From Psychrobacter cryohalolentis K5 (GTDB lineage Bacteria; Pseudomonadota; Gammaproteobacteria; Pseudomonadales; Moraxellaceae), in assembly GCF_000013905.1 (NCBI RefSeq), contig NC_007969.1, forward strand, positions 870,001 through 902,000: a stretch of DNA of 32,000 nt, given 5' to 3'. A model generated the notes under the pieces. It saw only the letters and a program-made list of their open reading frames with translations, did no database searches and was not told the DNA's origin. Below, in pieces: positions 5,090-31,247 of the stretch. A program made the translations under genes and the position numbers. Positions within the stretch are counted from its first letter, which is position 1. The number at the start of each line of letters is the position of its first letter.

Positions 5090-5160
5090 CATTGAAGCGC
5101 TGCTACTTCAAGTGAGACAGAAAAGTTAGAAGCATATAGCGAATTCAGTATTAAAGCGAT

Positions 5161-5241
5161 ACAGTAGGACTGGGATGAATTTTACGCAGCCTCTGTCGGC
5201 GTAGGCACAGCACGCCAGAAAAATTTATACCAGTACTACGT
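5161..5241. repeat. Intergenic palindromic repeat, copy 1 (REP/MITE-like, about 80 bp)
   Basis: Imperfect terminal inverted repeats: ACAGTAGGACTGGGATGAATTTT ... AAAAATTTATACCAGTACTACGT. The core CGCAGCCTCTGTC..AGGCACAG..AGAAAAATT reappears in reverse orientation at 13266-13341. Confidence 0.7.
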
Positions 5242-10139: not shown

Positions 10140-10251
10140 TTTTGGTCAAATCTTAAATGCTTTGAAGCTTTACAATTATTGTTTAAATAGAAGCCCCGTA
10201 TCGTCATGAACTGACCCCCATAAGTTGGACACAACTTTTGGGGGTTATTTT

Positions 10252-13163: not shown

Positions 13164-13265
13164 TTTGGATATCCTTAAGATGATGTTCTAGATAATGGTT
13201 GCAATAAAATACTGGTATAGTCATGCCTGAATAAAAGAAATATACAGGTTATAAAGCACTACTGA

Positions 13266-13341
13266 GGTTAATTTTTCTTGCTTTCTGTGCCTGCACAGAC
13301 AGAGGCTGCGAATAATTAACCTCAGTATTGTTGTACTCTTT
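13266..13341. repeat. Intergenic palindromic repeat, copy 2 (inverted relative to copy 1)
   Basis: Perfect 14-bp terminal inverted repeat: TACTGAGGTTAATT (13270-13283) / AATTAACCTCAGTA (13324-13337). Core GACAGAGGCTGCG (13308-13320), CTGTGCCT and AATTTTTCT are reverse complements of copy 1 segments. Confidence 0.7.
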
Positions 13342-14473: not shown

Positions 14474-14512
14474 AAAAAAAGCCGTTATCATGGATTTGAT
14501 AACGGCTTTTTT
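14474..14512. terminator. Bidirectional rho-independent terminator between the hydrolase gene and the C-C lyase-like gene
   Basis: GCCGTTATC (14481-14489) / GATAACGGC (14498-14506) form a perfect stem, flanked by A7 on the left and T6 on the right. Confidence 0.8.
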
Positions 14513-14538: not shown

Positions 14539-15627
14539 CTATAAGCGCGCTGTATAGTCGTTATTGCCATCATTAATGGTGCCAAAAACGTTAGCTCTAT
14601 TGACGATTTCGGTTGCCCAAGCACGATGGGTAGCAGGCTCTAGCATAGTATTGTTATATTTAAAGACCGCTTTTGCCTCGCTATGTAATATCGCCTGTGC
14701 CTCATCTAAAGTGCTAAGCGGTACGCAGTATGCTTGCTGTACCAAGGCAATCTGACTTGGATGAATAACGGTTTTTCCGACCAAGCCCAAGCTGACATCA
14801 CGCGTCAACTCTTGCATAAATAACGTAGGCTCATCCAAATACTCAAACACCGGCGCCGACAGATAAAAGCCATGGGGCACAAAACAGCCAAGCAGCTGGT
14901 AGGCTAGTGTACCAACAGGTGTATCATAGACAAGGCTATTCTTAGGACGGCGCAAACGCAGTGCTGCAAATAAATCATTACCACCAATACGCAAAGCAAA
15001 TACCGGCTGGCTAAAAGCTTCTTTGAAACCAATCGCCAGCTCTTGATTATGATGAGGATTAAACAACGCTGCCGTCTCAAGCGTTGGCATTAATAGCATG
15101 TCAGTACTAAGATTCTGGCATGCCATGCGCCAATTAGATAGACTGTACATATCGACTTTTGGCATCACAAAACCGTCAATCAAATCAATATGGGTAAAGC
15201 CCGATAACTGCTCTAACATGGCAGGATGGCGCGGACGTACAAATACCAACGGACGCGTTGGCTGCTCAGTCTGTATCTTGGTTTGTTGTGTTTCAGCTTG
15301 CTGTATCGGCTCATTGATACTATCGACGTGCGTTGCCCACGTATACAGCAGCGTCTGCAAGCGCTCAAGTGCCAACTCAACATCATTGTGGCTGACCGCA
15401 TCTTCTAGACAGATGATAATACTATTAATCGTCGGTAATTTATCACGCTTGATCACTTGCCAGATATCTTGGCGCGTCGCTGGCATATATAAGCTCGCTC
15501 CCAACTGATACGGATGATGCATGTTAGGTTTGAGCATAGCATGACGCTCAGTAATCAGATGCGCGTAAGACTGGGTGTTTTGATAAAGGTGGGACTCGTT
15601 TTTTGGCATATCTGACATAATGGGCAT
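14539..15627 (-). CDS. HpcH/CitE-like TIM-barrel C-C lyase (Ter-associated type)
   Basis: CitE/HpcH-like motifs: SLYMPATR, IIICLEDAV, RIGGNDLFAAL, GKTVIHPSQI. Last gene of the HAD, PRTase-like, lyase operon. Has a Q/T-rich internal insertion. Confidence 0.8.
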   Translation of the reverse strand: MPIMSDMPKNESHLYQNTQSYAHLITERHAMLKPNMHHPYQLGASLYMPATRQDIWQVIKRDKLPTINSIIICLEDAVSHNDVELALERLQTLLYTWATHVDSINEPIQQAETQQTKIQTEQPTRPLVFVRPRHPAMLEQLSGFTHIDLIDGFVMPKVDMYSLSNWRMACQNLSTDMLLMPTLETAALFNPHHNQELAIGFKEAFSQPVFALRIGGNDLFAALRLRRPKNSLVYDTPVGTLAYQLLGCFVPHGFYLSAPVFEYLDEPTLFMQELTRDVSLGLVGKTVIHPSQIALVQQAYCVPLSTLDEAQAILHSEAKAVFKYNNTMLEPATHRAWATEIVNRANVFGTINDGNNDYTARL

Positions 15628-15695
15628 CGTAAATAGTGGTAAATGAATGGGGCTAAAAGTATGGTTTCAAGATTAGGTAGAAAGATAAGGAGTTA

Positions 15696-16877
15696 TTAAT
15701 CGTCTGTAGCGCGCTGCTTAATAAGGGTAATCGCTTGATAAGGCAGTATTTTATCACCTAGTACGCTAATAGCGATATGTCGCTGTGTACATAAATGCCT
15801 TAATAATATAGTGTCGGGGTGCTCAGCGCTCGCTAACAAAATACGTTCAGGGTCGCGGCGTAGTATCGCGCGTGTCGCCTCAGCAATGGTCGGTTTAATA
15901 CGATTACGATTGCTGATATTGTATTCTGCTGCCAGCTTATCGACTAAGTCGGCCGTTTGATAGCGAGGTTGCTTATGTGTTGGCAAGCATTTCAAAGGTG
16001 TGTTTAATATACGCCTTGTCGCATCGATACAATCAATAAAGGCCAGACTATGATCTGCACTGATCAAATTATCATAAAAGACACTGCGATGCAGCCCCAA
16101 TTCCGGCTCAGTATATAAACTGCGTGATATAAGCCCTGATACAGTACTATTTAATAAACCTGACGGAATCAACCAGTCATCGATACTAGCAGCCAGCCAA
16201 GCAACACCAGCCGGATCAGCAAGGGTCAGTAGCGGTATAACATCCTGACCTTGATGGAAAATATTGGCAAAGTTAGGGTGGTTAGGATCGGAAAATGCTT
16301 TTAGACTATGCGCCAGTTCTTGATAAATCGCCCCTTTACCTGTCCAACCATCCACAAATACAATCGGGCTATGAGGATGATTATTTAATATCATCTTTAA
16401 AGCAACCGGATCAAGACCACGATCTCGTATAATACTGACGCCATAATGCACACTTGGTAGAGAGTAGCTGCTATTGGCAGTTGCTAATGCGCGTTGTAAC
16501 AGTACGCCTATTGGTAAACCGGCACGCACAAGACTGACTAAAATTAACGGGCGCTCATTATTGAAGTTTGACTGAAAAACTTGCTGTAGCGTATGGGCCA
16601 AATTGGTAATATCAGTTGCTGCTCTTACTTTTCCCTGCTCTAACGCCTCAATATATAGCTGCTCATGCATGGCACTTGGCGCGTCTTCCAAAGTCAGCAT
16701 ATCAGAATAATGACGCTGCCCACTTTGAATCAGTGCTTCTTTTTGACTGACAGGCACATCAGCAACGGCATCTTTATCAACGATATTGAGCAGCACAGTG
16801 ACATCGCTAGCAAGATAGCTGCCTGAGCCATATTGTGATAAATCGGCTGTTTTAATATTAGAATGGATTGAAGTCAT
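15696..16877 (-). CDS. PRTase-like protein of the Ter-associated family often annotated 'StiP'
   Basis: 393 aa. The PRPP-loop-like IVFVDGWTGKGAI is preceded by LILVSLVRAGLPIG. The separate C-terminal ~100-aa domain is reported in the literature as PELOTA-like RNA-binding. Context is with the HAD and CitE-like genes. Confidence 0.7.
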   Translation of the reverse strand: MTSIHSNIKTADLSQYGSGSYLASDVTVLLNIVDKDAVADVPVSQKEALIQSGQRHYSDMLTLEDAPSAMHEQLYIEALEQGKVRAATDITNLAHTLQQVFQSNFNNERPLILVSLVRAGLPIGVLLQRALATANSSYSLPSVHYGVSIIRDRGLDPVALKMILNNHPHSPIVFVDGWTGKGAIYQELAHSLKAFSDPNHPNFANIFHQGQDVIPLLTLADPAGVAWLAASIDDWLIPSGLLNSTVSGLISRSLYTEPELGLHRSVFYDNLISADHSLAFIDCIDATRRILNTPLKCLPTHKQPRYQTADLVDKLAAEYNISNRNRIKPTIAEATRAILRRDPERILLASAEHPDTILLRHLCTQRHIAISVLGDKILPYQAITLIKQRATDD

Positions 16878-16958
16878 AGTAGAAATAGTTGTACTCGTTT
16901 GATGACGGTTTAATAATAGATTAATAGCAGAATATCATTTAATAAAAGGTAGCGCTCA

Positions 16959-17765
16959 TCATTTAGCTGCAAATTTCTCATGTAGCTGTCCATGATTGGG
17001 CATGCCGTACCAGTCAAGTAATTGCAGAAATGGCAGATCTGCCAGACTGTCACCAAAACCGAAGCTTGGGCGCTGATGATCCAAATGCTGCTCCAACAAA
17101 AATTGTACCGCATGACGTTTATGAATAGCATGCGGCAATATTGCTAAATTATTAGCATTCACATGCACATAAAAAATCTCATCAAAATCTGGTATGAGCG
17201 TTGGTAATTGTATGGCTAACTCTGCCAATGCTTGATGGTCTTTTTGTGTGTGTTTGATCGCTATATAAATGGTCATCTCGCTATCGATAAAAGTATCTTT
17301 ATGCGGGGTGAGCTTTAAGTCGTTATGTACGTTATTGCAGCCATTCACCCACTCAGTCAGCTGACTGAGCTTATCTTGTACTGGAGCAAGCGCGTTATAC
17401 ATATGCTGCTGCCACGTGCTTAGTAGCTCACCATCAGACGCTAAAATGACCGCGCCATGGGTCAATACTTGCCAGCTATTAAAAGGCAGTTTGACGCGTT
17501 TAATTTCTTGACGATCACGTGCTGTGACAGCTATCAATTCAGTACTGGCAAATAGCCAATTAAAAAAGACCGCTTGGCGCTGACTCATAAAGCTTAACGG
17601 CTCACCTTGTTTATTGATGGTGGCGCAAACCAAATTTTCAGGTTCAGTAGTGGGTAATTCCCATGCATCAATTTTACGCTGAGTTTGAAAGAGCGTATCG
17701 TCCAAATCCATTAGCGCATAAGGTTTTACAATATTTAAGTTCGGTTGGAAAAATGGGGAGGTCAT
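16959..17765 (-). CDS. HAD-superfamily phosphatase (Ter-associated)
   Basis: Motif I LMDLDDTLF (DxDxT), motif II VTARD, motif IV GFGDSLADL. The ATG at 17765 (MTSPFF) is preferred over the track's TTG at 17777. Confidence 0.8.
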   Translation of the reverse strand: MTSPFFQPNLNIVKPYALMDLDDTLFQTQRKIDAWELPTTEPENLVCATINKQGEPLSFMSQRQAVFFNWLFASTELIAVTARDRQEIKRVKLPFNSWQVLTHGAVILASDGELLSTWQQHMYNALAPVQDKLSQLTEWVNGCNNVHNDLKLTPHKDTFIDSEMTIYIAIKHTQKDHQALAELAIQLPTLIPDFDEIFYVHVNANNLAILPHAIHKRHAVQFLLEQHLDHQRPSFGFGDSLADLPFLQLLDWYGMPNHGQLHEKFAAK

Positions 17766-18169
17766 GACGTTTTCCAAAGATAAAAATGATGATAAGACTG
17801 TTTATAGATGGCTTGGATACGAATATGTAAGGGAGGTGCAGCGCTGTTTTTTAAAACTGAGCATTACCTATTTATCAGACTTTAGCCAAATGCAGACAGT
17901 ATAACGATAATCATAAAAAAGGTCAGAATAAATCGGTAATAAAAGTGCAGAATTATCGCAAGAGGATTGGACGTAACTCATTTGGAGTTAGCATATAAAT
18001 ATAATAAACTCAGAAAATTGAGTAACCAAACTTTCCAAGTTTATTAAAGGGTGATTATGCAGACGGCAGGATAATACTAGGTTTCTTGTGATAGCGACTA
18101 TAGACTCAGCAACAATCACTGTCATATGTTTATACTATCATTTAAATAACAAAGAAATATTTGAATATC

Positions 18170-19141
18170 CTATCCATATATTTCTTCTAACCTTAGGCAA
18201 GAAACCAAGCGTCCTTCCCATTCACGTAGCTCAGGCTCAATTTCGCTACATATTGGTTTGGCATAGGGGCAGCGTTTATGAAGTGCGCAGCCACTTGGCG
18301 GATTAAGCGGACTAGGTAATTCGCCTTGTAGAGTCAGCTCTTTTTTATGACCCGTCACTGAAGGCGCTGCTGAGAGTAAAGCGATGGTATAAGGGTGTTT
18401 AGGATCATTATAAATAGCATCTTTAGCACCGTGCTCAACGGCCTTGCCTAAATACATGACCATCACGTCATCTGCTACGTGGCGTACGACAGAAAGGTTA
18501 TGCGAGATAAAGACATAGGCAGTATGATATTCATCTTGTAAATCCATAAATAGATTCAGTACTTGCGCCTGAATAGAGACGTCAAGTGCTGACGTTGGCT
18601 CATCAGCGACGACAATTTTAGGGTTGAGCATCATGGCACGGGCAAGAGCAATACGTTGGCGCTGACCGCCAGAAAACATATGCGGATAGCGACCGGTATG
18701 CTCAGGACGCAAACCAACGTGCTTCATCATTGCATGGACTTTGGTGCGTTTTTCTTCTTTGCTCAGCGTGGTATGAATGTCTAACGGTTCTGTGAGCTGA
18801 AAACCGATAGTATGACGTGGATTAAGACTGCCATAAGGGTTTTGGAATACCATCTGAATCTCAGTACGCAAGTTTTTAAGCGCACTTCTACTATAACTCG
18901 TAGTTGCCTCATCGTTAATAAATAACTCGCCACTGGTAGGTTCTTCTATCAAGGTAAGCTGGCGCGCCAAAGTAGATTTGCCACATCCTGACTCACCAAC
19001 GACTGCGAGAGTTTTCCCTGCTTCTAGCTCAAATGAGATGCCATTTAATGCCTTAACAAACGCTTTGCCTTTTCCTAAGCCTAGAGACACTTGATAGTGC
19101 TTATGTAAGTTATCTGCCTTTAAGACGATTTTATTACTCAT
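18170..19141 (-). CDS. dppF: Dipeptide ABC transporter ATP-binding protein DppF
   Basis: Walker [10 protein letters not shown], signature FSGGQRQR, Walker [13 protein letters not shown], and an oligopeptide-type C-terminal Cys-rich tail. Overlaps dppD by 4 nt. Confidence 0.9.
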
Positions 19142-20199
19142 ATTTCAGACTCCATCGTAGCGGTTTGAGTAGTCCGAGTAGGATGTTCGGGAAGGGTGGC
19201 GTGAATACAGCGGACTTCGCCATTTGGGGTTGTTAAGATAGGTGGTGGCACCTCACAAGCCGGCTCTTTATAGGGACAGCGAGGAGAGAGCAGACAGCCT
19301 GTAGGCCTGTCATATTGGCTTGGCACCACACCTGGTAAGCTATTTAATCTATCTTGTCCAACAGCCAGTTCAGGAATCGCTTGCAGTAGGGCTTCGGTAT
19401 AAGGGTGCGCAGGTTTTTGGAATATCTCTGGCACTGTACTGGTCTCGACCACTTGACCGGCATACATGACAGCGACATCACGAGCGTTTTGTGCGACTAA
19501 GCCCAAGTCATGAGTGATGAGCACCATTGCCATTTGCTTTTCACGTTGCAGGCGACTGAGTAAATCCATGATTTGAGCCTGAACGGTAACGTCGAGAGCG
19601 GTCGTCGGCTCATCAGCGATAAGCAGTTTTGGCTCGCAAGCCAGTGCCATCGCAATCATGACCCGTTGACTCATACCACCTGAAAGTTGGTGCGGATAGA
19701 CACGTAGGCGATTCTTAGCATCTGGCATCTCAACCAGCTCTAATAACTCTAACAGACGCTGCCGTACTGCTGCGCCGCGCAAGCCAAGATGGGTAGTTAA
19801 TACTTCTCCCATTTGCATCTCGACCGTAAAGCTTGGATTCAGGCATGACATGGCGTTTTGAAATATCATCGAGATATCTTTGCCGATAATCTTGCGCTTT
19901 TGTTTTGCTGGCATGGTGAGGAGATTCTTGTCATCAAAGTTAAGACGATCAGCAACGACAGTGGCAGAAGAGGGTAATAAACCCATCAGTGCCATCATAG
20001 TGACCGATTTACCAGAGCCTGATTCACCGACAACCGCGACGACTTCTCCTTGTTTTATTTTTAAAGAGACATCATCGACCGCACGGAATGCTCGTGCTCC
20101 TTCTCCAAAAGTCACCGATAGATGCTCAATATCGAGGAGTAATGGGTTGTCTGTGGCAAGGTTATTTGCTATTGGGCTATTTACTTGAGAGTCGTTCAT
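19138..20199 (-). CDS. dppD: Dipeptide ABC transporter ATP-binding protein DppD
   Basis: Walker A GESGSGKS, signature LSGGMSQR, Walker [13 protein letters not shown]. Position in the operon. Confidence 0.9.
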
Positions 20200-21113
20200 T
20201 AAGATACCTGCTTCAATTTTGGATCTAAGGCATCACGCAGACCGTCACCCGTTAGATTGATGGACAATGCGGCTAAGAAAATCGCCACACCGGGCCAAAT
20301 CGCTAACCACACATTGCTCTGGATATATTGGCGAGCAGTACCTAGCATCGCACCCCACTCAGCATCAGGGGGTTGAACACCGAAACCTAAGAAACCAATC
20401 GCGCCGGCTTCCAAAATAGCAGTAGAGAAAATCATGGTCGCTTGGACGATTAATGGCGCCATACAATTGGGTAATATCGTGATAAATAATAATCTTAAGA
20501 CGCCTGCACCCATGACCTGTGAAGCAATAAAATACTCACGTTGCAGCTCAACCATTGCTGTTGCGCGGGTCAACCTAATAAAAGGCGGCGTACATACCAA
20601 GGCAATAGTAATGATGGTGTTGGTCATCGAAGGCCCTAAGATAGCGGCAATGATAATGGCGAGCAGCAAGCTTGGATAAGACATCAAGATATCATTCACT
20701 AGCATGACCGCTTTGCCCCAAACCTTGGGCCAAAAGGCAGCGCTTAGTCCTAACGATACGCCCACAATCATCGCTATCGAAGTGGCGCTGATACCGATGA
20801 ATAATGAATAACGTGCGCCGTGCATGACGCGCGAGAGCGTATCACGACCGGCATCATCGGTGCCCAAAAAGAACATCGAATCACCGCCATTAAAGAAGGA
20901 GGGCGGCAATTGCTCTTTACCGGTGAATAATTCATAAGGGTCATAAGGGGCAATGGTAGGGGCCAAGATTGCGACGATGACCATCAGCATCAAGACTATA
21001 AAACCCAGTACCGCGCCTTTATTTCGGCAAAAGGTGTATAAAAACAGCTGCCAAGAAGTCGGCGGCTTAGGCGCAACCGGAGCAATGTCAGAAGGAACTA
21101 CAGAAGGCTTCAT
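20199..21113 (-). CDS. dppC: Dipeptide ABC transporter permease DppC
   Basis: Colinear with E. coli DppC ([53 protein letters not shown]). AAGGA RBS at 21121-21125. Confidence 0.9.
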
Positions 21114-21348
21114 TGGATATTCCTTTAGTGAATCAGACCTTGTTTTACTCCACTGGCTTGCTTACTTTATTAGGATAAGTCGCTTATGGTTTCAGCTAAC
21201 TTAGCATGCGCTTATCTTCTGTAAGCTGAGTAATGCAAACTTAGGGATACAAGATCTTTATGAGCACTATGGGTAATTATTAAAAACTATAAATAGCAAT
21301 TGTCGATACATTAATAATGCATCAAATGGGCTTCACCCTAACAATAGA

Positions 21349-22365
21349 CTATGAAGAATGGCGAATTCTAGGATTAATAAATCCATATAAAATATCGATC
21401 ATTAAGCTCACCAGAATCAGAGCAGTAGCGACCAATAAAATACCATTTTGTACAATGGGATAATCACGTGTAAAGAAACCATCTAATAACCAGTTGCCGA
21501 CACCGGGCCAACTAAAAATAGTCTCAGTGATAATGGCACCAGCCAGCAATGTTGCCATCTGTAATCCCACTACAGTAACCACGGTAATGAGCGCATTACG
21601 CATCACGTGAATTAAAATCACACGTTTTGGTGATAGACCTTTGGCTCTTGCAGTACGCACATAATCTTCATCTAACACTTCAAGCATCGCCGAACGTGTC
21701 ATACGAGCAATCATAGCTAGAGGAATAGTAGATAGGGCAACCGAGGGCAAGATGAAATGTTTTACAACGTTCCAAAAGGCGCCGGGCTCACCAGAGCTTA
21801 AAGAACCTAGTAGCCAAGACCCGTATAAAGGTTTGACGTCTAGGAACTGCGCGACAGAGATAACGCCAGAGACCGGTAGTAGACCTAGATAGTGGGCGAA
21901 AATACCCGTTAGGATAGGACCAAGTAAATAGATCGGCATAGAGTAGCCGGCAAGTGCGCCAGACATTAATGTATAGTCCAGCCAAGTACCACGGCGTAAG
22001 GCAGCTAGGATACCCAGACTAATACCAACGATACTCGCTATCGTAATCGCGCAAAGTGCAAGCTCTAATGTCGGCACAAAATGCGCAAAAAAGTCCTGCA
22101 ATATCGGTGTGCGGGTACGAAAGGATTCACCAAAGTTACCTTGCAGTATCCCAGTGAGATAATCCCAGTATTGTACGGGTAACGGTTTATCTAGACCAAG
22201 GCGGGCTAAAGCCTGCGCATGTAGCTCAGGATCAACCATGCGCTCTCCCATCATAATCTCAACCGCATCGCCAGGTACGAGGCGAATAAGAATAAAAGTC
22301 GATAGGGTTAAGCCGATATAGACAGGAACTAAGATTAAAATCCGGCGTAGAATATAAAGTAGCAT
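21349..22365 (-). CDS. dppB: Dipeptide ABC transporter permease DppB
   Basis: From MLLYILRRILILVP it is colinear with E. coli DppB and gives the same 339-aa length (EDYVRTARAKGL, ETIFSWPGVGNWL, NPRIRH). The track start at 22422 is an extension. Confidence 0.9.
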   Translation of the reverse strand: MLLYILRRILILVPVYIGLTLSTFILIRLVPGDAVEIMMGERMVDPELHAQALARLGLDKPLPVQYWDYLTGILQGNFGESFRTRTPILQDFFAHFVPTLELALCAITIASIVGISLGILAALRRGTWLDYTLMSGALAGYSMPIYLLGPILTGIFAHYLGLLPVSGVISVAQFLDVKPLYGSWLLGSLSSGEPGAFWNVVKHFILPSVALSTIPLAMIARMTRSAMLEVLDEDYVRTARAKGLSPKRVILIHVMRNALITVVTVVGLQMATLLAGAIITETIFSWPGVGNWLLDGFFTRDYPIVQNGILLVATALILVSLMIDILYGFINPRIRHSS

Positions 22366-22508
22366 AGCTCGGCTCGATTTTATAAAAGTGGCTTTTACCA
22401 GATATAGCTCAGGCTCAGACAAAGAGGGCTGGAACAGAATCTCTGAACCAGCCGCAAACGTATATAAAGCAATGACTATAAAGTAAAAGGCGTCACTAGG
22501 GTTTGTTA

Positions 22509-22538
22509 GGTACTGGTATTGAATCTAATACCAGTACC
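22509..22538 (-). promoter_or_regulatory. Perfect 12-bp stem-loop in the dppA-dppB spacer (candidate mRNA-stabilising or attenuating hairpin, REP-like)
   Basis: GGTACTGGTATT-GAATCT-AATACCAGTACC, about 40 nt downstream of the dppA stop. No U-tract follows on the coding strand. A third partial arm CACTGGTATT lies at 22548-22557. Confidence 0.6.
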
Positions 22539-22577
22539 GAATGTAGCACTGGTATTAGCTAATGCTATTTAATAGCT

Positions 22578-24221
22578 TTATTCAATATCAACGCCATCAA
22601 AGCGAATGGAGCCGAGTGGGCTAATTTTGTAGTCTTTCACATTAGGGGTGGTCAATACCGTCACAACTGAGTTGGCAACTGTGGTCCAAGGCAATTGGTC
22701 TTTAAAGATAACCTGAGCCTGCTTGTAATTAGCAATACGCTCATCTTGGTTGGTATTTGCACGCGCATCCATGACCAGCTTATCAAACTCTGCATTACAC
22801 CAGCGCGAGTAGTTGTTACCATTGACGGCATCACAAGATAGTAAAACACCTAACCAGTTATCAGGATCGCCATTATCGCCTGTCCAACCGGCTAGGATCG
22901 CTTCAGGTTCACCTTTGCCAGCACGCTTTAGATACTCGCCCCACTCATAAGTCACGAGCTTGGCTTTGACCCCAATTTTAGCCCAATCAGATTGAATCAT
23001 TTCTGCCATGAGCTTAGCATTGGGATTATAAGGACGCTGAACGGGCATATACCATAAGTCGATTTCTAAATCTTTAGCACCCGCTTCAGCCAGTAGGGCT
23101 TTGGCTTTTTCGATATCGTAAGGCGCATCTTTGATCTCATCGTTATAGCCCCACTGCGTTGGTGGCATTGGGTTGCTTGCTTTGATACCAGAACCTTGAT
23201 ATACCGCATTGATGATGGCGTCTTTATTGATTGCCATATCGAGAGCGCGGCGAACATTGACATCTTTTAGATCGGGTTTTTCAGTATTATAGCCTAAATA
23301 ACCGACGTTAAAGCCTGCATCATCTAGTACGTTTGCTTTGCCAGATTTTTTGGCAGAGTCCACTTCAGATGGATTAGCGTAAGCCGAGACATTACATTCG
23401 CCTGCTTGTACTTTTTGGGCACGAACCGCTGAGTCTTTGGTGATGACAAAGACGAGGTTATCGATATGAATGTTGTCTTTGTTCCAGTAGTCAGGATTTT
23501 TGGTATAACGAATCTGCGCATCTTTTTGATACGAAGTAAAGACGAAAGGTCCGGTACCGACTGGTTTGGTATTTAGATCAGCTGCATTGCCAGCGTCTTG
23601 TAACTGCTTGGCATACTCTGCAGAATGCACATAGGCGAACGGCATTGCTAGGTTTTGTAAGAATGGCGCGTTGGTCTCAGTCAGAGTGATTTTGACCGTA
23701 TAATCATCGACTTTTTCTACTTTGTCGATAATATCAGGTAAGCCCATGCCTACTGAATATGGGAATTCAGCTGGATAGTCTTTATTAAAAGCAAAGCCTG
23801 TATCGGTAAGACGTTCGATGGTAAAGATAATGTCATCAGCATTGAAGTCACGAGTTGGGGTGAAATAATCGGTCTTGCCGAATTTGACGCCTTTACGTAG
23901 ATTGAGCGTATAAGTCTTACCGTCTTCGCTGATTTCCCAGCTTTCGGCTAAGCCTGGCTCGATTTCGGTTTCGCCACGTTTAAACTGTACGATACCATTA
24001 AAAATAGGATAAGCACTGGCATCAAAGTCAGTACCTGCCGTATATTGCGCAGGGTCAAAGCCGGCAGGGCTACCTTCTGAACAGTAAATTAAGGTCTTAG
24101 CGGCTTTGGCATCACTACCGGCATCTGCCGTTTTATCCGCAGTTTTATTGTCGCCGCTACAGGCGCTGACGCCTAGCGTTAAGGCTGCTAATAAGGTGAG
24201 CTTGAAAAATGGAGTTTGCAC
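22578..24221 (-). CDS. dppA: Dipeptide-binding periplasmic protein DppA, lipoprotein form
   Basis: Colinear with E. coli DppA (KTLIYCSEGSP.GF, GLAE.WE.SEDGKTYT, MPVQRPYNPNA..MAEMIQ.DWAKIGV.AK.VTYEWGEYLKRA, GWTGDNGDPDN). GTG start with AGGA upstream. The signal peptide ends in lipobox VSAC. Confidence 0.92.
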   Translation of the reverse strand: MQTPFFKLTLLAALTLGVSACSGDNKTADKTADAGSDAKAAKTLIYCSEGSPAGFDPAQYTAGTDFDASAYPIFNGIVQFKRGETEIEPGLAESWEISEDGKTYTLNLRKGVKFGKTDYFTPTRDFNADDIIFTIERLTDTGFAFNKDYPAEFPYSVGMGLPDIIDKVEKVDDYTVKITLTETNAPFLQNLAMPFAYVHSAEYAKQLQDAGNAADLNTKPVGTGPFVFTSYQKDAQIRYTKNPDYWNKDNIHIDNLVFVITKDSAVRAQKVQAGECNVSAYANPSEVDSAKKSGKANVLDDAGFNVGYLGYNTEKPDLKDVNVRRALDMAINKDAIINAVYQGSGIKASNPMPPTQWGYNDEIKDAPYDIEKAKALLAEAGAKDLEIDLWYMPVQRPYNPNAKLMAEMIQSDWAKIGVKAKLVTYEWGEYLKRAGKGEPEAILAGWTGDNGDPDNWLGVLLSCDAVNGNNYSRWCNAEFDKLVMDARANTNQDERIANYKQAQVIFKDQLPWTTVANSVVTVLTTPNVKDYKISPLGSIRFDGVDIE

Positions 24222-24380
24222 TGTGATTACATCCTGTATAAATCGTTAGATAATTATCGATTGATAGCACGACAACGACGTTAGACGCCGTTGATATCGA
24301 ACTCTAATCGATAAACCTTTAATTCCTTTTAAAGTATTTATCAATTCAAATTATTTCAGGCAATGACAAATTATCAGAAT

Positions 24381-24409
24381 TTGAGACACCTCAGAATGGT
24401 GTGTCTCAA
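24381..24409 (-). terminator. Candidate stem-loop separating the upstream PRTase operon from dppA
   Basis: TTGAGACAC (24381-24389) / GTGTCTCAA (24401-24409) form a perfect 9-bp stem with an 11-nt loop. Minus-strand trailing sequence is ATTCTGATAATTTG. Function is uncertain. Confidence 0.3.
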
Positions 24410-24697
24410 GTGTTTGGTCTTCTAATAGTTGATATGTTGACACTGAATAAGCAAATGAATAGACCGAATATATAGGTAAATATGAGGTTGTGCAAGGTAT
24501 CTACAGCGCAAATATGAATTTTTTTATGCTATGGACATCTTTTTTGTTATTAATGAGGTATTTAACCTCCGTAAAATCACAGGCATATATAAGTAAACTT
24601 TGTTTTAGAAAGATATAATAAATATTCTAAAGATGTTCATATTACGGCTATGACAATCCATTATCAGTAGCTCGTAATATGCATGTTAAATGCACGT

Positions 24698-25975
24698 CTA
24701 TTTAGGACTCACCATCAACACATTATCCAAACCTTTCCACATGGTATCCACACTATCAGCCGACGTTTCCACACACAATACAATCAAATCCCACTCATTT
24801 GGCTCAACGTTATAAGCAAAGTTGGTCATACCAAGGCCATAATTATCATGAAAGCTTAACATCGTGCCAATACCTCTACCAAGTGCAATCGGTGAGCGTG
24901 TCAATGCGCTAAAATTCACCGTATTATTGCTGTTATCTAAATTCGTATACTGCTCAAGCCATTCCGCCAATAAGAAGGGCAACCAGACAAATTCATTACT
25001 GCCCAGTACCAATATTTTTTGTGGCAATTGAGCGTTATTAAATGCGTTTTGGCCATCAAAACTTGCAAATGCAGTTTGGAAACTTGCTAGATAATCAGCA
25101 AAGCCATTCGTGCTATCTAGCGTTGGAAAGCGCCCCCAATTACCGGTATTGCCCAAAGGTTGACTACCAGCTTCGGTCGTATCAACCGATGGCATAATGA
25201 TAGGCTCAGGGTTGGGCGCATCAGTCCATTTCCAAGCGCCAGATAGTAAATGATGGCGGTGAAAATCAATGTTTGGGAGACGGGTGGCAATCGTATCATT
25301 GGCGTTAGCATCAGACTCACTTTGATTCTGATTTAGAGACCAATCAACCAAGGTTGTGAGATGCACTTGCTCTAGTTGGGTCAACCCAGCTTCACGTAAT
25401 GCTGTGACGACATTAACGCAAGTATTACCCGTTGATGCTTCATCATCGACCATAATTAGCGTTTTACTGGCAAGTAGTTGCGCTTGCGTCATTTTATCGG
25501 CACTTTGATAAATCAGATGCTGACTGGCATGACTGTGGTCTTCGCTAAAAGTGGTCAATAAAGAATCGCTACTGTTGTCATCATGCTGGGCATGACGAGT
25601 AGAATTCAGCAGTAACGCTTGTGGATAGCGCGTTTGTAGCGCTTGGTGCACACCGGCAGATAAGCCAACCGCCGTCTCTGCCATACCTATGACCAAAATC
25701 GGCTCAGGCAAATCATCAGGTACTAAGTTTGCCAAATCAGTAAAGGCGTCACGCATGATGCTTGGTGCCACCGGAATATGACGACCTAACACTTTTGAGA
25801 CAAACAAAAACGCCCGTTTTGGGTTGATACGTTGAGCAAAATCAAGCAAATCTTCTAGCTGATAATGGCTACTTTCTTTAAGGTCGTTATTACCACTAGC
25901 AGCGTTGGTCTGATAGGTCAGATCAAGCGTACCGCGAGGTAAGGTGATGGTCGTGTTGTGTTGCTTATTTGGCAT
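24698..25975 (-). CDS. Type-I phosphoribosyltransferase-domain protein with a long C-terminal extension (Ter-associated PRTase_2/TRSP-like)
   Basis: Classic PRPP-binding loop TLIMVDDEASTGNT. Upstream ILVIGMAETAVGLSAG. About 200-aa C-terminal domain of unknown function. Strong GGAAGGAA RBS. Confidence 0.8.
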   Translation of the reverse strand: MPNKQHNTTITLPRGTLDLTYQTNAASGNNDLKESSHYQLEDLLDFAQRINPKRAFLFVSKVLGRHIPVAPSIMRDAFTDLANLVPDDLPEPILVIGMAETAVGLSAGVHQALQTRYPQALLLNSTRHAQHDDNSSDSLLTTFSEDHSHASQHLIYQSADKMTQAQLLASKTLIMVDDEASTGNTCVNVVTALREAGLTQLEQVHLTTLVDWSLNQNQSESDANANDTIATRLPNIDFHRHHLLSGAWKWTDAPNPEPIIMPSVDTTEAGSQPLGNTGNWGRFPTLDSTNGFADYLASFQTAFASFDGQNAFNNAQLPQKILVLGSNEFVWLPFLLAEWLEQYTNLDNSNNTVNFSALTRSPIALGRGIGTMLSFHDNYGLGMTNFAYNVEPNEWDLIVLCVETSADSVDTMWKGLDNVLMVSPK

Positions 25976-26149
25976 TCATATTCCTTCCGGATTTTTATAG
26001 ATTTAAAATTATTTCCTAACTCTTATAATTCATTAGAATAAACTTAATACGGCAGTTGTAAGTGTTATGCTGCTGTTGTATTTTTTGAGTCAGGTAGTTG
26101 ATATGAGTGATTAATATATAATAATGCTAAAGACTGAAATAATCTTATA

Positions 26150-26575
26150 TTAACCATTGTATTGCATAGGTATAGAAAACAAGCTTAGAATAATATTTAA
26201 GCCAAAATTAAACGCTGGTGCAAGTACAAGACTTAGATAGGTATGACCAAAATAGTAAGTAAGAGCCAACAAGATAGGTATTGCAATAATATCTATCGCA
26301 ATCTCATATTTAGGAAAAACACTTTGCTGAATGTTCTCTGACATGATTACTATCGCGGCAAACACTAGCAATAAAGGCAAGATTATTATTGCTATACCTA
26401 TAAACAATGCTAAACCACCAAACATCATGAAAAAACCAAATATGATTGATAGTCCATTCATAATGGATGAACTTGTTTCAATACTATGGGAAAGATTTCT
26501 CGCGATGTCAAAATAAGCATTAGGGAGAGCTTTTAACTCATATACTAAAAAATCATAAATAGAATTAATAATCAT
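26150..26575 (-). CDS. Small hypothetical integral membrane protein (141 aa, about 3-4 TM helices)
   Basis: The ORF fills the gap between the ATP-grasp and PRTase genes on the same strand. Long hydrophobic stretches (LSIIFGFFMMFGGLALFIGIAIIILPLLLVFAAIVIM; IDIIAIPILLALTYYF). Markedly AT-rich. No family recognised. Confidence 0.55.
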   Translation of the reverse strand: MIINSIYDFLVYELKALPNAYFDIARNLSHSIETSSSIMNGLSIIFGFFMMFGGLALFIGIAIIILPLLLVFAAIVIMSENIQQSVFPKYEIAIDIIAIPILLALTYYFGHTYLSLVLAPAFNFGLNIILSLFSIPMQYNG

Positions 26576-26614
26576 ATTTAAAAATCTTATAAAATATTTC
26601 GATAGATGAAAAGC

Positions 26615-27781
26615 TTAAACTTCTGAAGCATCTTCTTCAATCTTTACACTCACCATAATAGAACGTACTTGGCACGGTGTAATTTGCTGTGCGATATCTG
26701 CCAGTTTCGGCTTCTTACTTAAACCGAGCCAATAAGCAAAACCAACTTGAGTTAGATCTACGCCGCTATGAGTGGTGTAATCAATACCACCAGAGGGGCG
26801 ACTATTAATCTCAAGCACACGATGCTGACCATTATCATCCGCTTTAGTCTGGACACTAACAATACCATCACAGCCGAACGTTTTTATCAGTGGAATGACC
26901 ACATCCATGACCGATTGCTCATAACCAATATGTTGAATTTTCCCCGTTTTATAACGGGTAATAGCAGCCAACACTTCGCCGTATTCACAGACGACATCGA
27001 TAGAGTATTCTTGTCCTGATAAATAAGGCATTAATAGCATCGGAATAGGGCGCTCATGCACCATAAGACTGTTGGTATAAGCATTGATAAATTGCGCGGT
27101 ATTGATTTTCTTCTCTTCGGTAAAGTATAGATGCTCAAAACTGTCGTATGGCTCACCTTCTTCTTTACCTGTCTCTTTAACTTTACCTAAGCGCCAAAAT
27201 CCTTGGGCAAAAATCCCCGTCACTGGTTTGACACATAAAGGCTGATGACCATGGGTGGCAAGTAACGCCTCAAGCTCTGCGACAGTATCAAAGCGCCATG
27301 CATCTGCGACAGGGATATCATGCTCATGGCACTGCTGCATAAAGGCAAACTTATCATCGATGGATTCCAGTGCTGAAACGCTGGTCGCACCTGTCAATAA
27401 ACGGATACCTGCTGCTGCAAATTTTTCGCGATGAGCTTCGTAATCAATGCCATTGCGTCCAGTAAGCAACACTTTCACGTTGTTTTTCTGAGCTTGTTCT
27501 AACACAAATTGCCAACGTGGCATCAATGGCTCAACAGATTCGAGCACTGCTTGTTCATCGCTATCTGCGGTGCTAATAGAAGGCTCGCGGTAAATGATGT
27601 CGGCAAATTCAAAAATCTCAGGTCTATTATGACGATGTGAGGCAACGATATGAAAGGGCATGCTAGAGTGAGCTTTTAGGGTTTGCAGGCTAGCTAACAT
27701 ATCACGCTGGCTTGACTGACCTTCAGCCAACCAAGCAGCGCTTAACTTTGTATGATGACTATTGTTAACAGGGTTATCCAT
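26615..27781 (-). CDS. ATP-grasp ligase (Ter-associated ATP-grasp type)
   Basis: ATP-grasp core: CVKPVTGIFAQGFW, YLSGQEYSIDVV, and the Mg/ATP loop HRVLEINSRPSGG. Divergent from the TerD-fold gene. Confidence 0.8.
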   Translation of the reverse strand: MDNPVNNSHHTKLSAAWLAEGQSSQRDMLASLQTLKAHSSMPFHIVASHRHNRPEIFEFADIIYREPSISTADSDEQAVLESVEPLMPRWQFVLEQAQKNNVKVLLTGRNGIDYEAHREKFAAAGIRLLTGATSVSALESIDDKFAFMQQCHEHDIPVADAWRFDTVAELEALLATHGHQPLCVKPVTGIFAQGFWRLGKVKETGKEEGEPYDSFEHLYFTEEKKINTAQFINAYTNSLMVHERPIPMLLMPYLSGQEYSIDVVCEYGEVLAAITRYKTGKIQHIGYEQSVMDVVIPLIKTFGCDGIVSVQTKADDNGQHRVLEINSRPSGGIDYTTHSGVDLTQVGFAYWLGLSKKPKLADIAQQITPCQVRSIMVSVKIEEDASEV

Positions 27782-28087
27782 AATTCTCTTTGCACTCTCT
27801 TAAATAATAGGGTTGTGGATCACTCGATATCGTCATCATAAAGTGATTAGCAATTTAATATATGATCGAATAATTTCAGACATGGCATTTATACATAACG
27901 GGCTCTATTATATACAAATGCTAGATGTTATAAATGTTTCCAATTAAATAGCATCAAGGATTTTTACTTTTTTTATGATGTTTTATAAGATGCTGGTTCT
28001 GATTAAGGTTGTAATGCCATCCATGCTACTATATGGCGATAGTTAACCTCACTCATATAAGTAAATAATAAATAACGTAAAGGATAA
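27782..28087. promoter_or_regulatory. 306-bp AT-rich divergent intergenic region, presumed promoters for the ATP-grasp operon and the TerD-fold gene
   Basis: Inferred from geometry only, as it separates divergently transcribed genes. I could not identify a convincing operator; the best is a 6-bp inverted repeat ATCACT-N17-AGTGAT. Confidence 0.4.
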
Positions 28088-29374
28088 ATGATGAGTCAAC
28101 CTCAAGCTTTAATTGCAGGTGCTAACGCACCGCTGCCAACGGATAATATTAGCATTCGTATTTTAAGCCAAAATGCCATCGACTGTGCGGCTTATCGCCT
28201 GACGACTGAAGGTAAAGTACGCGGCGATGGCGATATGATATTTTATGGGCAGACGCGTAGCGATGATGGTAGCGTGAGCTTTCGCGGTCATGACAGTGAT
28301 GGATTTTTTGATATCAATCTACCTGCACAGCCAGCAACTATTGAAAAGATTGCGTTAGCATTTTCTAGTGCGCAGACGTTGGCTCAAGTCGGTGATGTGG
28401 ATATTCAAGTACTACAAGGCAGTCAAGTGTTGATAACTTGCCAATTAAGTGCTGTTGGACGTAATGAAAAAGCTATCATCTTAGCTGAATGTTATCGTCG
28501 GCAGGGCAATTGGAAGTTCCGATTTATCGCTCAAGGTTTTGAAGGTGGCTTAAAACCTTTATCTGAGCATTTCGGTGTAGAGATTGCCGATGAAGCACCA
28601 GCTCAAAGCCCTATACAAAATCAGTCACAAGGGCAAGCTCAGCCTATTAATACGCAGCGACCAATCAATACGCAAAAAGCTAGTAGTGCGCCTCAGACAA
28701 CTACGCCACCGCCGATTCCTGCTGGCTCTACCAATCCTTCAATCAACCTAAGTAAAATTACTTTAACCAAAAATCAATCTAGTATCAATCTCAAGAAACG
28801 TGATGATTTTGGCAAAATATCGGTCAACCTAGACTGGAACCAACGTCCAGATGTCAGCAAGCAAGCACCCAAAAAAGGGCTGCTTGGCGATTTATTTAAG
28901 CAGCATAAAGCTGGTGGAATTGATCTCGATGTTGGTGCGATGATTCATCTGAAAAATGGTGAAAAAACGCTTATTCAAGCGTTGGGAAGTCGTTTTGGTA
29001 GCCTACAGTCAGCGCCATACGTTCTATTGCGTGCCGATGATAGAACAGGACAGGTAAGCGGCGGTGAATGGCTAGATATCAATGGGCAACAGTGGTCACA
29101 GATTGAAGAAGTATTTATCTTTGCTTTCATTTACGAAGGCGCACCAAATTGGGCGCAAACTGATGGGGTAGTGACTATTCATGTACCCGACCAGCCACCG
29201 ATTGAAACGCGTTTGACAGAAGGTACAGGTAACTTACCGATGTGCGCTATTGCGCGTCTGGTCAATCAGCAAGGCAGTATCAACGTTGAACGTATCAACC
29301 AATACTTTAAAGGACATCAAGAGATGGACAAAGCCTTTAATTGGGGCTTTAGCTGGAAACGTGGCAGTAAGTAG
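28088..29374 (+). CDS. Two-domain TerD-fold protein (TerA-like tellurite/stress-resistance family)
   Basis: N-domain: GKVRGDGDMIFYGQ..DGSVSF and ECYRRQGNWKFRFIAQGFEGGL match the TerD core. A Q/P-rich linker follows. C-domain: INLKK...ISVNLDWN, GGIDLDVGAM, ADDRTGQVSGGE are TerD Ca-site-like motifs. Confidence 0.85.
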   Translation: MMSQPQALIAGANAPLPTDNISIRILSQNAIDCAAYRLTTEGKVRGDGDMIFYGQTRSDDGSVSFRGHDSDGFFDINLPAQPATIEKIALAFSSAQTLAQVGDVDIQVLQGSQVLITCQLSAVGRNEKAIILAECYRRQGNWKFRFIAQGFEGGLKPLSEHFGVEIADEAPAQSPIQNQSQGQAQPINTQRPINTQKASSAPQTTTPPPIPAGSTNPSINLSKITLTKNQSSINLKKRDDFGKISVNLDWNQRPDVSKQAPKKGLLGDLFKQHKAGGIDLDVGAMIHLKNGEKTLIQALGSRFGSLQSAPYVLLRADDRTGQVSGGEWLDINGQQWSQIEEVFIFAFIYEGAPNWAQTDGVVTIHVPDQPPIETRLTEGTGNLPMCAIARLVNQQGSINVERINQYFKGHQEMDKAFNWGFSWKRGSK

Positions 29375-29498: not shown

Positions 29499-31247
29499 AT
29501 GTGGGAAATATTATCGCAGATGCTATCAAGAATGAGTATCATCATTACGATTGCTTATTTAATCACTAGACTGCCTATATTTAGAAAAATGATTTCCCAG
29601 CGAGTCGGAATAGGTGGTTTATTTGTTTTGATAATAATATTTGGTATGTTTGGAGTCATTGGTAATTATACGGCGCTTGTTGTAGAGCCGGGTAACCAAA
29701 AAGTCATATCCAATATATGGAATCCTACACTTCAATCAAACAATGCAGTAGCGGATACAAGAAATATCGGTATCATCATCGGTGGCTTTTTTGGTGGTCC
29801 AATAGTTGGCATAGGTGCTTCAGTTATTGCCGGTGCCCATCGTTTGCTGATGGGTGGTTTTATCAGTGGAGCCACTTTCTGGGTATCTATCTTAGGTGGC
29901 TGCTTTGCAGGATGGTTTGGATATAAATGGCGCGGAATGGGTCTAATTAAGCCAAGATATATGTTTCTTACCAGCATTATCATTTTAACGATTCAAATTT
30001 TAGCTATTCCAGTCTTAACTACCGATCATACTACGGCACTCAAATTAATTGCTTTTACAGGCCCACCCATTATCATCATCAACAGTGTTGGTATATGGAT
30101 TTGTGCGATGATTTTTTATAATGTAGTAGTAGAAGAGGATAGAACAAGAGCAAGTCAAACGGTCAAAACATTTTCAATTGCTGATCAAACCTTCTCGTTA
30201 TTCCGATCGGGTCTCAATGAAAACTCAGCTAAAAAAAGTACAAAAATTATTAAAAAATTAACTGCTGTAGAGCATGTAGCGATTACTAGAGGTATTCGTG
30301 AATTAGCTTATACTGGAACATTGAATAATCAAAAGAGAAATGAAGAAGAAGACCTTGCATCACGTAAGCTGGCTTTATCAACGGGAAAATCAGTATTAAA
30401 TGAGCCAAAGTCAAAATGGCTGTTTTCAAAGAAATCAAATAGTAGAGCTTCTGTAGTAGTGCCATTTTGTGTTCAGAATAAAACGATTGGAACCATTACT
30501 TTTTATTATGCAAGCTCATTACATATTACTGTCGTTGAAAAAGAACTGATTGAAGGTTTAGGCAAGCTTTTCTCAAATCAATTAGAGCTTGGTGAGATTG
30601 AACGTCATAATCAACTATTACAAAACGCAAAAATTGAGGCGTTACAATCGCAAATTCAACCCCATTTTTTATTTAATGCATTAAATACCATTGTAGCTTT
30701 ATGTAGAATCGATCCAATGCTAGCGCGAGATTTATTGCTACACTTATCTACTTATTTGCGAAATAACTTGTCAGGCATTGCTGATTTTTTGGTACCGGTA
30801 TACAAGGAAATGGAGAATGTACAAGCTTATTTGGCCATTGAACAAGCTCGTTTTCCAGATAAGTTTGTAGTCAATATAGAAGTAGCTCCTGATTTGATTG
30901 AGTGTCTTATTCCTCCATTTATCATTCAGCCTTTGGTCGAGAACGCAATAAAGCACGGTGGATTTAAAAAGATAGAAGCTAAAGGTGCAGTTCATATCGA
31001 GATTAAAAAAATATCAGAACTCTTAATTTTGATTAAAGTTTCTGATAATGGGATTGGCGTTGAGCTAAATCGAATAGTAGATCTAGGGGAACGTGTTGTA
31101 AAATCCTCTAAAGATGGAAGTGGCACCGCGTTATTCAATATAAAAGAGCGACTTACGGCACTGTACAGCCAAGATGTACGCTTTAATATAGACAGTGATG
31201 TTGGCAAAGGGACTTGTGTGTCGATTATATTGCCGGTTAAAACTTAG
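29499..31247 (+). CDS. LytS/BtsS-type sensor histidine kinase (5TM-LYT, GAF-like, His_kinase, HATPase)
   Basis: N-terminal polytopic region with GGFFGGP and GG-rich helices. LQSQIQPHFLFNALN is the His-box of the LytS family. ENAIKHG is the N-box. DNGIG and GSGTAL form the ATP lid. Confidence 0.88.
   Translation: MWEILSQMLSRMSIIITIAYLITRLPIFRKMISQRVGIGGLFVLIIIFGMFGVIGNYTALVVEPGNQKVISNIWNPTLQSNNAVADTRNIGIIIGGFFGGPIVGIGASVIAGAHRLLMGGFISGATFWVSILGGCFAGWFGYKWRGMGLIKPRYMFLTSIIILTIQILAIPVLTTDHTTALKLIAFTGPPIIIINSVGIWICAMIFYNVVVEEDRTRASQTVKTFSIADQTFSLFRSGLNENSAKKSTKIIKKLTAVEHVAITRGIRELAYTGTLNNQKRNEEEDLASRKLALSTGKSVLNEPKSKWLFSKKSNSRASVVVPFCVQNKTIGTITFYYASSLHITVVEKELIEGLGKLFSNQLELGEIERHNQLLQNAKIEALQSQIQPHFLFNALNTIVALCRIDPMLARDLLLHLSTYLRNNLSGIADFLVPVYKEMENVQAYLAIEQARFPDKFVVNIEVAPDLIECLIPPFIIQPLVENAIKHGGFKKIEAKGAVHIEIKKISELLILIKVSDNGIGVELNRIVDLGERVVKSSKDGSGTALFNIKERLTALYSQDVRFNIDSDVGKGTCVSIILPVKT

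Follow-up and report, generated by a model that had tools for sequence, protein, structure and literature searches.

The Ter-associated biosynthetic module of ter clusters, which are linked to resistance to tellurite, phage and colicins, has been described as a set of genes for an ATP-grasp protein, a phosphoribosyltransferase (PRTase) with a TRSP domain, a HAD protein, a StiP-PELOTA protein and a C-C lyase (Anantharaman, Iyer & Aravind 2012, summarised in PMC7824862), and section 3.4.10 of that summary predicts a nucleoside-like metabolite as its product (PMC7824862). In Psychrobacter, terA has been found in the opposite orientation and the genus to be without terB (PMC5822837); likewise, the parts of ter clusters inspected here showed no terB. 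The locus considered below lies in a 32,000-nucleotide stretch of Psychrobacter cryohalolentis K5 (NC_007969.1, positions 870,001 to 902,000; hereafter, the window), in which a dppABCDF operon for a peptide importer stands between the PRTase and HAD genes of a chromosomal Ter module. This interleaved locus is a new organisational arrangement of a known module, arising from ordinary genome plasticity: it is probably the outcome of inserting an accessory dipeptide-importer cassette into a Ter operon, the cassette being lineage-restricted, horizontally exchanged and not demonstrably part of the pathway. Literature searches returned no report tying dpp to Psychrobacter ter clusters, and the accessible descriptions of these clusters are silent on dpp.

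Module order and distribution of the interleaved arrangement

In three plasmid ter clusters (from an IncHI2 plasmid of E. coli, P. aeruginosa pBT2101 and Duffyella), the module genes follow the order ATP-grasp, PRTase, HAD, StiP, lyase and abut or overlap in each case, while terZABCDE-type genes adjoin the block, divergently in two of the three. The window holds the same module, as judged from its Ter-specific ATP-grasp (PF15632), its PRTase_2-TRSP fusion, its HAD-StiP(+PELOTA)-lyase order and its linkage to TerD-family genes; the PRTases of plasmid ter clusters, found in 2,562 plasmid records, share 40-44% identity with that of the window. A prior reading of this DNA, made from the sequence only, had described Ter genes in two blocks, 14539-17777 and 24698-29374, lying 6.9 kb apart, with all genes from 14539 to 27781 on the minus strand in the order module-half, dpp, module-half; open reading frames (ORFs), strands and Pfam matches agree with that description. 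Read 5' to 3' on this strand, the genes at 14539-27781 are ATP-grasp, a 141-residue ORF, PRTase_2-TRSP, dppA-B-C-D-F, HAD, StiP-PELOTA and C-C lyase. The gap between the two Ter blocks (17778-24697, 6,920 bp) contains dpp, co-directional with its surroundings, at the PRTase/HAD junction, and the HAD-StiP-lyase order after the PRTase is kept across this 6.9-kb insert. Gene order in the window thus matches that of the plasmid modules save for dpp at that junction and the 141-residue ORF between ATP-grasp and PRTase.

The distribution of the arrangement was surveyed with one genome per GTDB species, using an alignment of the PRTase that yielded 80 loci (L numbers below), onto which all window proteins were mapped. 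In 63 of the 69 Psychrobacter species representatives (~91%), the PRTase gene is followed directly by HAD with no dpp, the gap between them being 0-120 bp in most of these loci and 172-1,808 bp in eleven; the eight Moraxella and Enhydrobacter loci have gaps of 71-146 bp. Six Psychrobacter loci carry dpp at the junction (L006, L007, L008, L016, L057 and L058), with about 7 kb between PRTase and HAD where the contig holds both ends, beside the 6.9 kb in the window's own genome (L001). Altogether, dpp persists at the junction in at least seven species-level lineages, and none is embedded in the modules of Moraxella or of the basal Psychrobacter species. The closest named relative, P. arcticus 273-4, whose flank proteins are 87-94% identical to those of the window, has its whole ter cluster contiguous and free of dpp; both it and L010 are nested among carriers and retain the module without dpp. 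Beyond the lyase, non-carriers and the window share their next genes (alpha/beta hydrolase, enoyl-CoA hydratase, AceI-type efflux); this is therefore one and the same chromosomal locus, and only the insert differs. The suggestion that an insertion broke an ancestrally contiguous cluster is upheld by the contiguous order in plasmids, Moraxella outgroups and most Psychrobacter species. Invariable interleaving with strict co-conservation, the pattern that would speak against rearrangement, was clearly not seen when synteny was compared.

Divergence of the insert and probable mobility of dpp in the genus

The insert and its flanks differ sharply in divergence. Against every other carrier, synonymous divergence (dS) lies at 0.39-0.80 in the five dpp genes, as against 0.8 to >2 in the Ter flanks, and sliding-window DNA identity among carriers is 86-95% (about 89%) over dpp versus 64-87% over the Ter flanks, with the step in identity coinciding with the insert edges. 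Concatenated DppABCDF sequences are 96-97% identical in every pairing of carriers; for PRTase, HAD and StiP together, identity among carriers is 76-83%, no nearer than that between carriers and non-carriers. In view of the higher identity and of the step at its edges, the dpp segment has a younger ancestry than its flanks. Codon bias was considered as a cause of the low dpp dS and was ruled out, as the bias is not strong (effective number of codons, Nc, ~50) and the non-coding spacers inside dpp are conserved equally (DNA identity of 92-95% for dppA-dppB and 85-89% for dppB-dppC). Base composition was likewise rejected as a sign of foreign origin: GC content at third codon positions (GC3) is 0.43 for dpp versus 0.38-0.41, a small contrast, and the comparison of GC and codon usage that had been proposed for the two halves and dpp turned out either uninformative or in keeping with a donor within the genus.

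These data bear on an improbable alternative history, in which a single ancient insertion early in the core Psychrobacter radiation was followed by vertical descent and by many losses or moves to an aldehyde dehydrogenase (ald) site, the similarity of the dpp operons being a matter of constraint. Such a history would agree with the PRTase-only tree, on which the carriers form one subclade, and with two metagenome loci, L093 and L098, in which embedded dpp and Ter flanks have diverged from those of the window to about the same extent; deletion is also plausible given a putative scar in P. arcticus (described below). However, it needs dozens of independent, mostly scar-free deletions, while a search for dpp-junction remnants in the 63 non-carriers found none except in P. 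arcticus, and embedded dpp is absent from the basal lineages. Constraint also fails to explain a dS that is 2-3-fold lower and uniform across carriers with widely differing flanks, because the spacers are as conserved as the coding DNA and codon bias is not strong. Furthermore, carriers and non-carriers intermingle on the trees built from concatenated flanks, and this, set against the single subclade of the PRTase-only tree, is the mosaic expected if the PRTase gene travelled with dpp. The simplest reading, which we infer from these comparisons, is that homologous recombination, most likely through the flanking Ter genes, has passed a dpp-bearing allele between species of Psychrobacter. The exchanged unit would be a cassette of ~6.3 kb, made up of dppABCDF and ~310 nt of its own upstream regulatory DNA, that was inserted co-directionally at PRTase/HAD and, to judge from the P. 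arcticus scar, may also be lost.

The standing of dpp elsewhere in the genus is consistent with mobility. A search with DppA returned ~17 clusters at ≥95% identity, a thin series falling from 88% to 73%, and Neisseriaceae proteins (71-72%) by about rank 40; in contrast, a search with the PRTase returned >120 Psychrobacter clusters at ≥80%. Other dpp operons lie beside aldehyde dehydrogenase, alcohol dehydrogenase and DUF779 genes in L097, L096 and L086-89 (DppA 88%, 85% and 80% identical to that of the window), beside norB in L091 (82%), beside purL and PDH genes in L095 (76%), and beside mscL and ldh in L100 (76%); DUF779 itself is patchy across the genus, and a search with it brought up no protein matched to a known carrier genome. 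One genome has dpp (L087) ~65 kb from a Ter module without embedded dpp (L055) on the same contig; therefore, module and dpp occur independently of each other. A core operon would be found in most species at a fixed locus with a divergence that tracks the genome, whereas dpp is patchy, has at least five contexts and is younger than its flanks. The sequence-only reading had taken dpp for a housekeeping operon, a view that must be given up: as genome comparison indicates, dpp in Psychrobacter is confined to a minority of species, sits at differing and unrelated loci and appears to be exchanged among species. Within the ald context, the operon of L096 encodes DppA, DppB and DppC that are 80-92% identical to those of the window, while its DppD and DppF are only 60% and 49% identical and shorter (312 and 263 residues), which suggests a chimeric operon in which the ATPase genes were replaced (L096 13060-14802).

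Junction anatomy, recurrent use and the question of coupling

The left spacer of the insert, between the PRTase stop and the dppA start (24222-24697, minus strand), is composite, as cross-context alignments and BLAST comparisons revealed. Its dppA-proximal ~310 nt (24222 to ~24530) are homologous among Ter-embedded dpp operons, and within them a block of 50-80 nt (24447-24527) is common to dpp operons that include those of the ald and norB contexts; thus, this part is dpp's own regulatory region. The PRTase-proximal ~165 nt (~24533-24697) are specific to the window clade and contain a hairpin at ~24638-24681 (z = -2.6; 3 of 200 shuffles). From one context to another, the junctions share no homology beyond the upstream block that belongs to dpp itself. 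In the right spacer, from the dppF stop to the HAD start (17766-18169, minus strand), an 18-bp AU-rich, terminator-like hairpin (18002-18046, inverted repeat I4) precedes a U-rich run (z = -4.2; 0 of 200 shuffles equally stable), with a promoter-like CTGACC-17-TATACT (17898-17926) downstream of the hairpin. The block that holds this site does not vary among three carriers, is near-invariant in another two and has 98% identity in P. arcticus. The interruption had been thought to require a separate promoter in 17778-18169, an expectation that fits with this conserved promoter-like block beyond a terminator-like hairpin. After the lyase gene, a predicted intrinsic terminator with a 16-bp stem and a T-run (14475-14512, minus strand; -21.4 kcal/mol, z = -5.6, 0 of 200 shuffles equally stable) would end the Ter biosynthetic unit. 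The genes of the pathway are all intact, and together these features predict three insulated units: ATP-grasp-orf141-PRTase, closed by the hairpin of the left spacer; dppABCDF with its own promoter region, closed by the hairpin after dppF; and HAD-StiP-lyase, which would be served by the promoter-like block and closed by the strong terminator. An Rfam scan of the window returned no families, hence no riboswitch or known sRNA in the spacers.

The PRTase-HAD spacer of P. arcticus (360 bp) contains the carriers' first 24 nt of the left junction, parts of their right spacer including the promoter-like block, and a 140-bp dispersed repeat. Its composition would be that of either a deletion scar or a pre-insertion allele of the subclade. 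An ORF of L093, orf222, was tried as a source of the window's right spacer and was rejected because the two have no similarity. The ~140-bp repeat is intergenic and resembles miniature inverted-repeat transposable elements (MITEs) or repetitive extragenic palindromes (REPs); a 21-kb stretch of the P. arcticus ter region holds seven copies (L090 11380-11520 and six others in L090, one copy being inside the PRTase-HAD scar), and weaker copies lie in the window (5157-5241 and 13258-13320) and at several other Psychrobacter loci.

In two further lineages, known from metagenomes (L093/94 and L098/99), dpp likewise stands between PRTase and HAD, and the DppA of both shares 79% identity with that of the window. 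In a bootstrapped DppA tree, these two lineages and the ald-context L087 form one clade with 100% support, while the window clade is sister to the ald-context L097 and L096 with 80-100% support. Junction architectures differ as well: the PRTase stop and the dpp unit are separated by 165 nt in the window clade, 0 nt in L093 and ~88 nt in L098, and dppF and HAD by ~400 nt, by 40 nt followed by orf222, and by 67 nt, respectively. Because there are two dpp clades and the architectures differ, the PRTase/HAD junction has been used more than once; dpp may either have entered it at least twice or have shuttled repeatedly between the same two sites.

Several points weigh against the cassette account. 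Ter-embedded dpp belongs to two well-supported clades whose sister lineages lie elsewhere, and it has three junction architectures, although random insertion predicts no repeated use of a single site; therefore, some site preference, mechanistic or selective, is indicated, and no shared junction sequence or terminal repeat that would explain it was found among the junctions compared. Neither transposase nor integrase nor terminal repeats were found in 17778-24697, where only short repeats at chance level occur. In addition, the promoters and terminators of the three units are sequence predictions, and flank dS is near saturation, while the neighbour-joining trees of the flanks have short internal branches, which leaves the number of transfers and losses unfixed.

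Recurrence could be accounted for if junctions within the Ter operon were recombination-prone or tolerant landing pads and dpp were one cargo among several, free of any selective link. Variable cargo is in fact found at two junctions. The ATP-grasp/PRTase gap is hypervariable across Psychrobacter, ranging from 33 bp to 5.2 kb, and its cargo includes TerD-trypsin (41 loci) and NYN-OST-HTH-TerD (13 loci) fusions, opposite-strand MHYT and V4R genes (24 loci) or MFS genes (8 loci), and a triple RidA, an Mrr restriction endonuclease or a DnaJ-like gene. The PRTase/HAD junction hosts orf222, a conserved membrane ORF of 220 residues without Pfam matches, in L030, L039, L040, L049, L062 and L093 (in the last of which it overlaps the HAD start), and a NADAR-DarT1-type antitoxin gene in P. 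pygoscelis (L063 9972-10700, minus strand). A block of LytS, LytTR and DcuC genes, moreover, splits terA from terD-AIM24-terD only in some genomes. However, comparison of the junctions brought out no repeat or recombination site common to them, and a neutral hotspot, very unlikely when taken by itself, would refine the cassette reading by accounting for recurrence rather than form a true alternative to it. Examples of the ATP-grasp/PRTase cargo are at L028 8625-9923, L010 8280-9977, L022 5018-5860, L060 8508-9245 and L066 5801-6979; the TerD-trypsin and NYN-OST-HTH-TerD fusions look like accessory Ter components, and the turnover of cargo at this site resembles, by analogy, that of defence islands.

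Site preference could instead be selective, and here the identity of the importer matters. The insert encodes, at 18170-24221 and in the order A-B-C-D-F, a family-5 substrate-binding protein, two OppBC-type permeases and two oligo_HPY ATPases according to Pfam; on the minus strand, dppA occupies 22578-24221, dppB 21349-22422, dppC 20199-21113, dppD 19138-20199 and dppF 18170-19141. For all five proteins the best NCBIfam matches are full-length Dpp models, and for all five the equivalog cut-offs were missed (DppA 660 vs 1005, DppB 408 vs 590, DppC 337 vs 483, DppD 442 vs 541, DppF 442 vs 660); the 'dipeptide' subfamily model NF008453 was passed by DppF alone (543 vs 408). The DppA protein shares 99% identity with proteins of P. 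cryohalolentis; its alignment with E. coli DppA (PDB 8z1y_F, 1dpp) spans the whole length and shows conservation of the dipeptide-terminus contacts Asp408 (WTGDNGDPDN) and Arg355 (PVQRPYNP; E. coli numbering). Because Dpp models match best, DppA aligns over its whole length and both motifs are kept, dppABCDF of the window is, as judged by homology, a bona fide dipeptide importer. The sequence-only reading had it as a true Dpp orthologue colinear with that of E. coli, which holds for the full-length best matches and ligand motifs but not at the level of the equivalog cut-offs. The dppA-dppB spacer, 92-95% conserved among carriers, contains a hairpin with a perfect 15-bp stem (22506-22541), which may stabilise or attenuate the transcript and so set the ratio of DppA to DppBCDF, by analogy with other operons that encode binding proteins.

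Peptide ABC importers take up peptidyl-nucleosides, as YejABEF does for microcin C and Npp in Pseudomonas. A functional coupling had, on this ground, been considered, in which the importer would supply a substrate of the Ter module, such as an amino acid or dipeptide for the ATP-grasp ligase to join to the PRTase-derived nucleotide, or import a related product, such as a peptidyl-nucleoside, and selection would place dpp in the operon. In its favour are the use of the same junction, always co-directionally, by two dpp clades in three architectures (the window clade, L093/94 and L098/99), the 67-nt gap between dppF and HAD in L098, which is compatible with co-transcription, and the retention of the arrangement in its several species-level lineages. 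However, module and dpp are independent in most genomes: embedded dpp is missing from the module in the great majority of Psychrobacter species, in every Moraxella outgroup and in the plasmids examined, dpp sits at unrelated loci in other genomes, and P. arcticus and L010 keep the module without it. The proteins match Dpp and not Yej, for which models scored far below their cut-offs (YejB 116 vs 445, YejF 237-291 vs 834, YejE-type 63 vs 439), and DppA keeps canonical dipeptide-binding residues. The window's dpp is bracketed by predicted hairpins and has its own conserved upstream region, and co-directionality is expected anyway, since purifying selection removes polar insertions. Coupling thus appears distinctly unlikely, although recurrent use of the junction by two clades leaves it a low probability. 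More doubtful again is the specific proposal that dpp was captured at least twice at PRTase/HAD because dipeptide import is tied to the Ter metabolite, for example through an ATP-grasp that ligates an imported amino acid or dipeptide to the PRTase product and so makes a peptidyl-nucleotide signal or toxin. If true, such a tie would provide the first genetic handle on the substrate of a widespread, uncharacterised pathway; the Ter module is common on clinically important plasmids, and any real link to an importer would hint at its substrate. As matters stand, the association of dpp with Ter is most likely an accident of genome plasticity and, therefore, gene-neighbourhood methods should not count dpp as a component of the module.

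Neighbouring features and known systems

The first module gene of the window encodes an ATPgrasp_Ter amidoligase (26615-27781, minus strand; PF15632, 5.2e-33) and is followed on the same strand by the PRTase_2-TRSP gene (24698-25975; PF15609 1.4e-53, PF12500 3.9e-16). Beyond dpp, again on the minus strand, come the HAD-family phosphatase (16959-17765, the ORF extending to 17777), with weak PF08282 (Hydrolase_3) and HAD-IIB matches; the StiP cysteine protease-like domain with PELOTA_1 (15696-16877; PF11202 8.9e-82, PF15608 2.9e-23); and, last, the HpcH/CitE-like TIM-barrel C-C_Bond_Lyase (14539-15627; PF15617, E = 1e-97), colinear with the plasmid modules. The HAD protein probably starts at the ATG at 17765 rather than at the ORF start, because that start is conserved across species and is the one called (268 residues) in CP022043.2, a public, P. 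cryohalolentis-like record that encodes a PRTase identical to that of the window. Between ATP-grasp and PRTase, the 141-residue ORF (26150-26575, minus strand; GC 0.31, GC3 0.27; singleton cluster C16) is predicted to be a multi-pass membrane protein, was found only in the window's genome and in one metagenome (Logan) contig, L002, and has neither a Pfam nor a PADLOC match; it may have been inserted recently from a foreign source, or it may be spurious. A PADLOC v2 scan of the module proteins gave no significant anti-phage match, with a marginal PRTase_III-A hit at E = 1.6e-4.

Divergent from the module is a terA-like TerD-family gene (28088-29374, plus strand; PF02342, 2e-27), whose product is 43-47% identical to plasmid proteins at the same position. 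Past the right end of the window, the ter cluster goes on in CP022043.2 with LytTR regulator, DcuC, TerD, AIM24 and TerD genes, and terC is present in the ter clusters of P. arcticus and L098. The LytS histidine kinase/LytTR/DcuC-type block (GC 0.36) lies at 29499-31247 of the window (plus strand) and past its right end (L001 2460-6477), parting terA from terD-AIM24-terD; the same ter genes are adjacent in P. arcticus and L098, and LytS adjoins terA also in L028, L057, L058, L081 and L093. By this comparison, the block is a second lineage-variable insert that splits the ter cluster again. Farther away, an IS3-family transposase made up of two ORFs (HTH followed by an rve integrase core) occupies 10225-11597 (plus strand) between aconitase B and AceI-type efflux genes, where P. 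arcticus carries a TIR-SEFIR gene (L090 16019-16945).

Homologues of the PRTase_2-TRSP protein (56-62% identity) stand alone in L073 (Faucicola mancuniensis), L083 (Moraxella boevrei) and L085 (M. macacae), amid housekeeping genes (serA-like, parC, shikimate dehydrogenase, ABC-F) and, in L073, with a trypsin-like peptidase upstream. No ATP-grasp, HAD, StiP or lyase gene occurs within ~10 kb of these three PRTase genes; evidently, the PRTase is able to persist without the rest of the module. A Ter module in L074 (BMPS01000026.1, labelled Streptomyces cinereus JCM 3040) groups tightly with Moraxella osloensis and Enhydrobacter loci in the PRTase and concatenated flank trees, with branch lengths of ~0.01, and is probably contamination in that assembly.

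Compared with the plasmid Ter module, such as that upstream of terZABCDE on IncHI2 plasmids, the locus has the same five families, order, orientation and divergent terA-like gene, but it is chromosomal, contains dppABCDF at PRTase/HAD and the 141-residue ORF at ATP-grasp/PRTase, and belongs to a genome in which terA is parted from the other terD genes by LytS/LytTR/DcuC. The importer resembles E. coli DppABCDF in its gene order, full-length colinearity and Asp408/Arg355 ligand motifs, but falls below the equivalog cut-offs and is accessory and mobile in the genus, with no fixed core locus. With YejABEF and Npp it shares an ABC importer superfamily defined by the family-5 binding protein, OppBC-type permeases and oligo_HPY ATPases, but Yej models score far under Dpp models, and DppA gives no sign of departing from dipeptide specificity.

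As a unit of gene exchange, the dpp cassette differs from classical mobile elements (insertion sequences or composite transposons, integrative islands), since no transposase, integrase or terminal repeats mark it. It is closer to the flexible genomic islets that related species exchange through homologous recombination in flanking core genes, having presence or absence at a fixed site, a sharp step in divergence at the edges, no mobility genes and a scar-like spacer in a close relative. In this, it illustrates clearly how an accessory operon can move from species to species while keeping to one site within another operon, and the carrier, P. arcticus scar and empty alleles offer natural, isogenic-like contrasts for the effect of interrupting the operon. 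Unlike such islets, however, the cassette has its site within an operon, at a junction that two dpp clades have both come to occupy.

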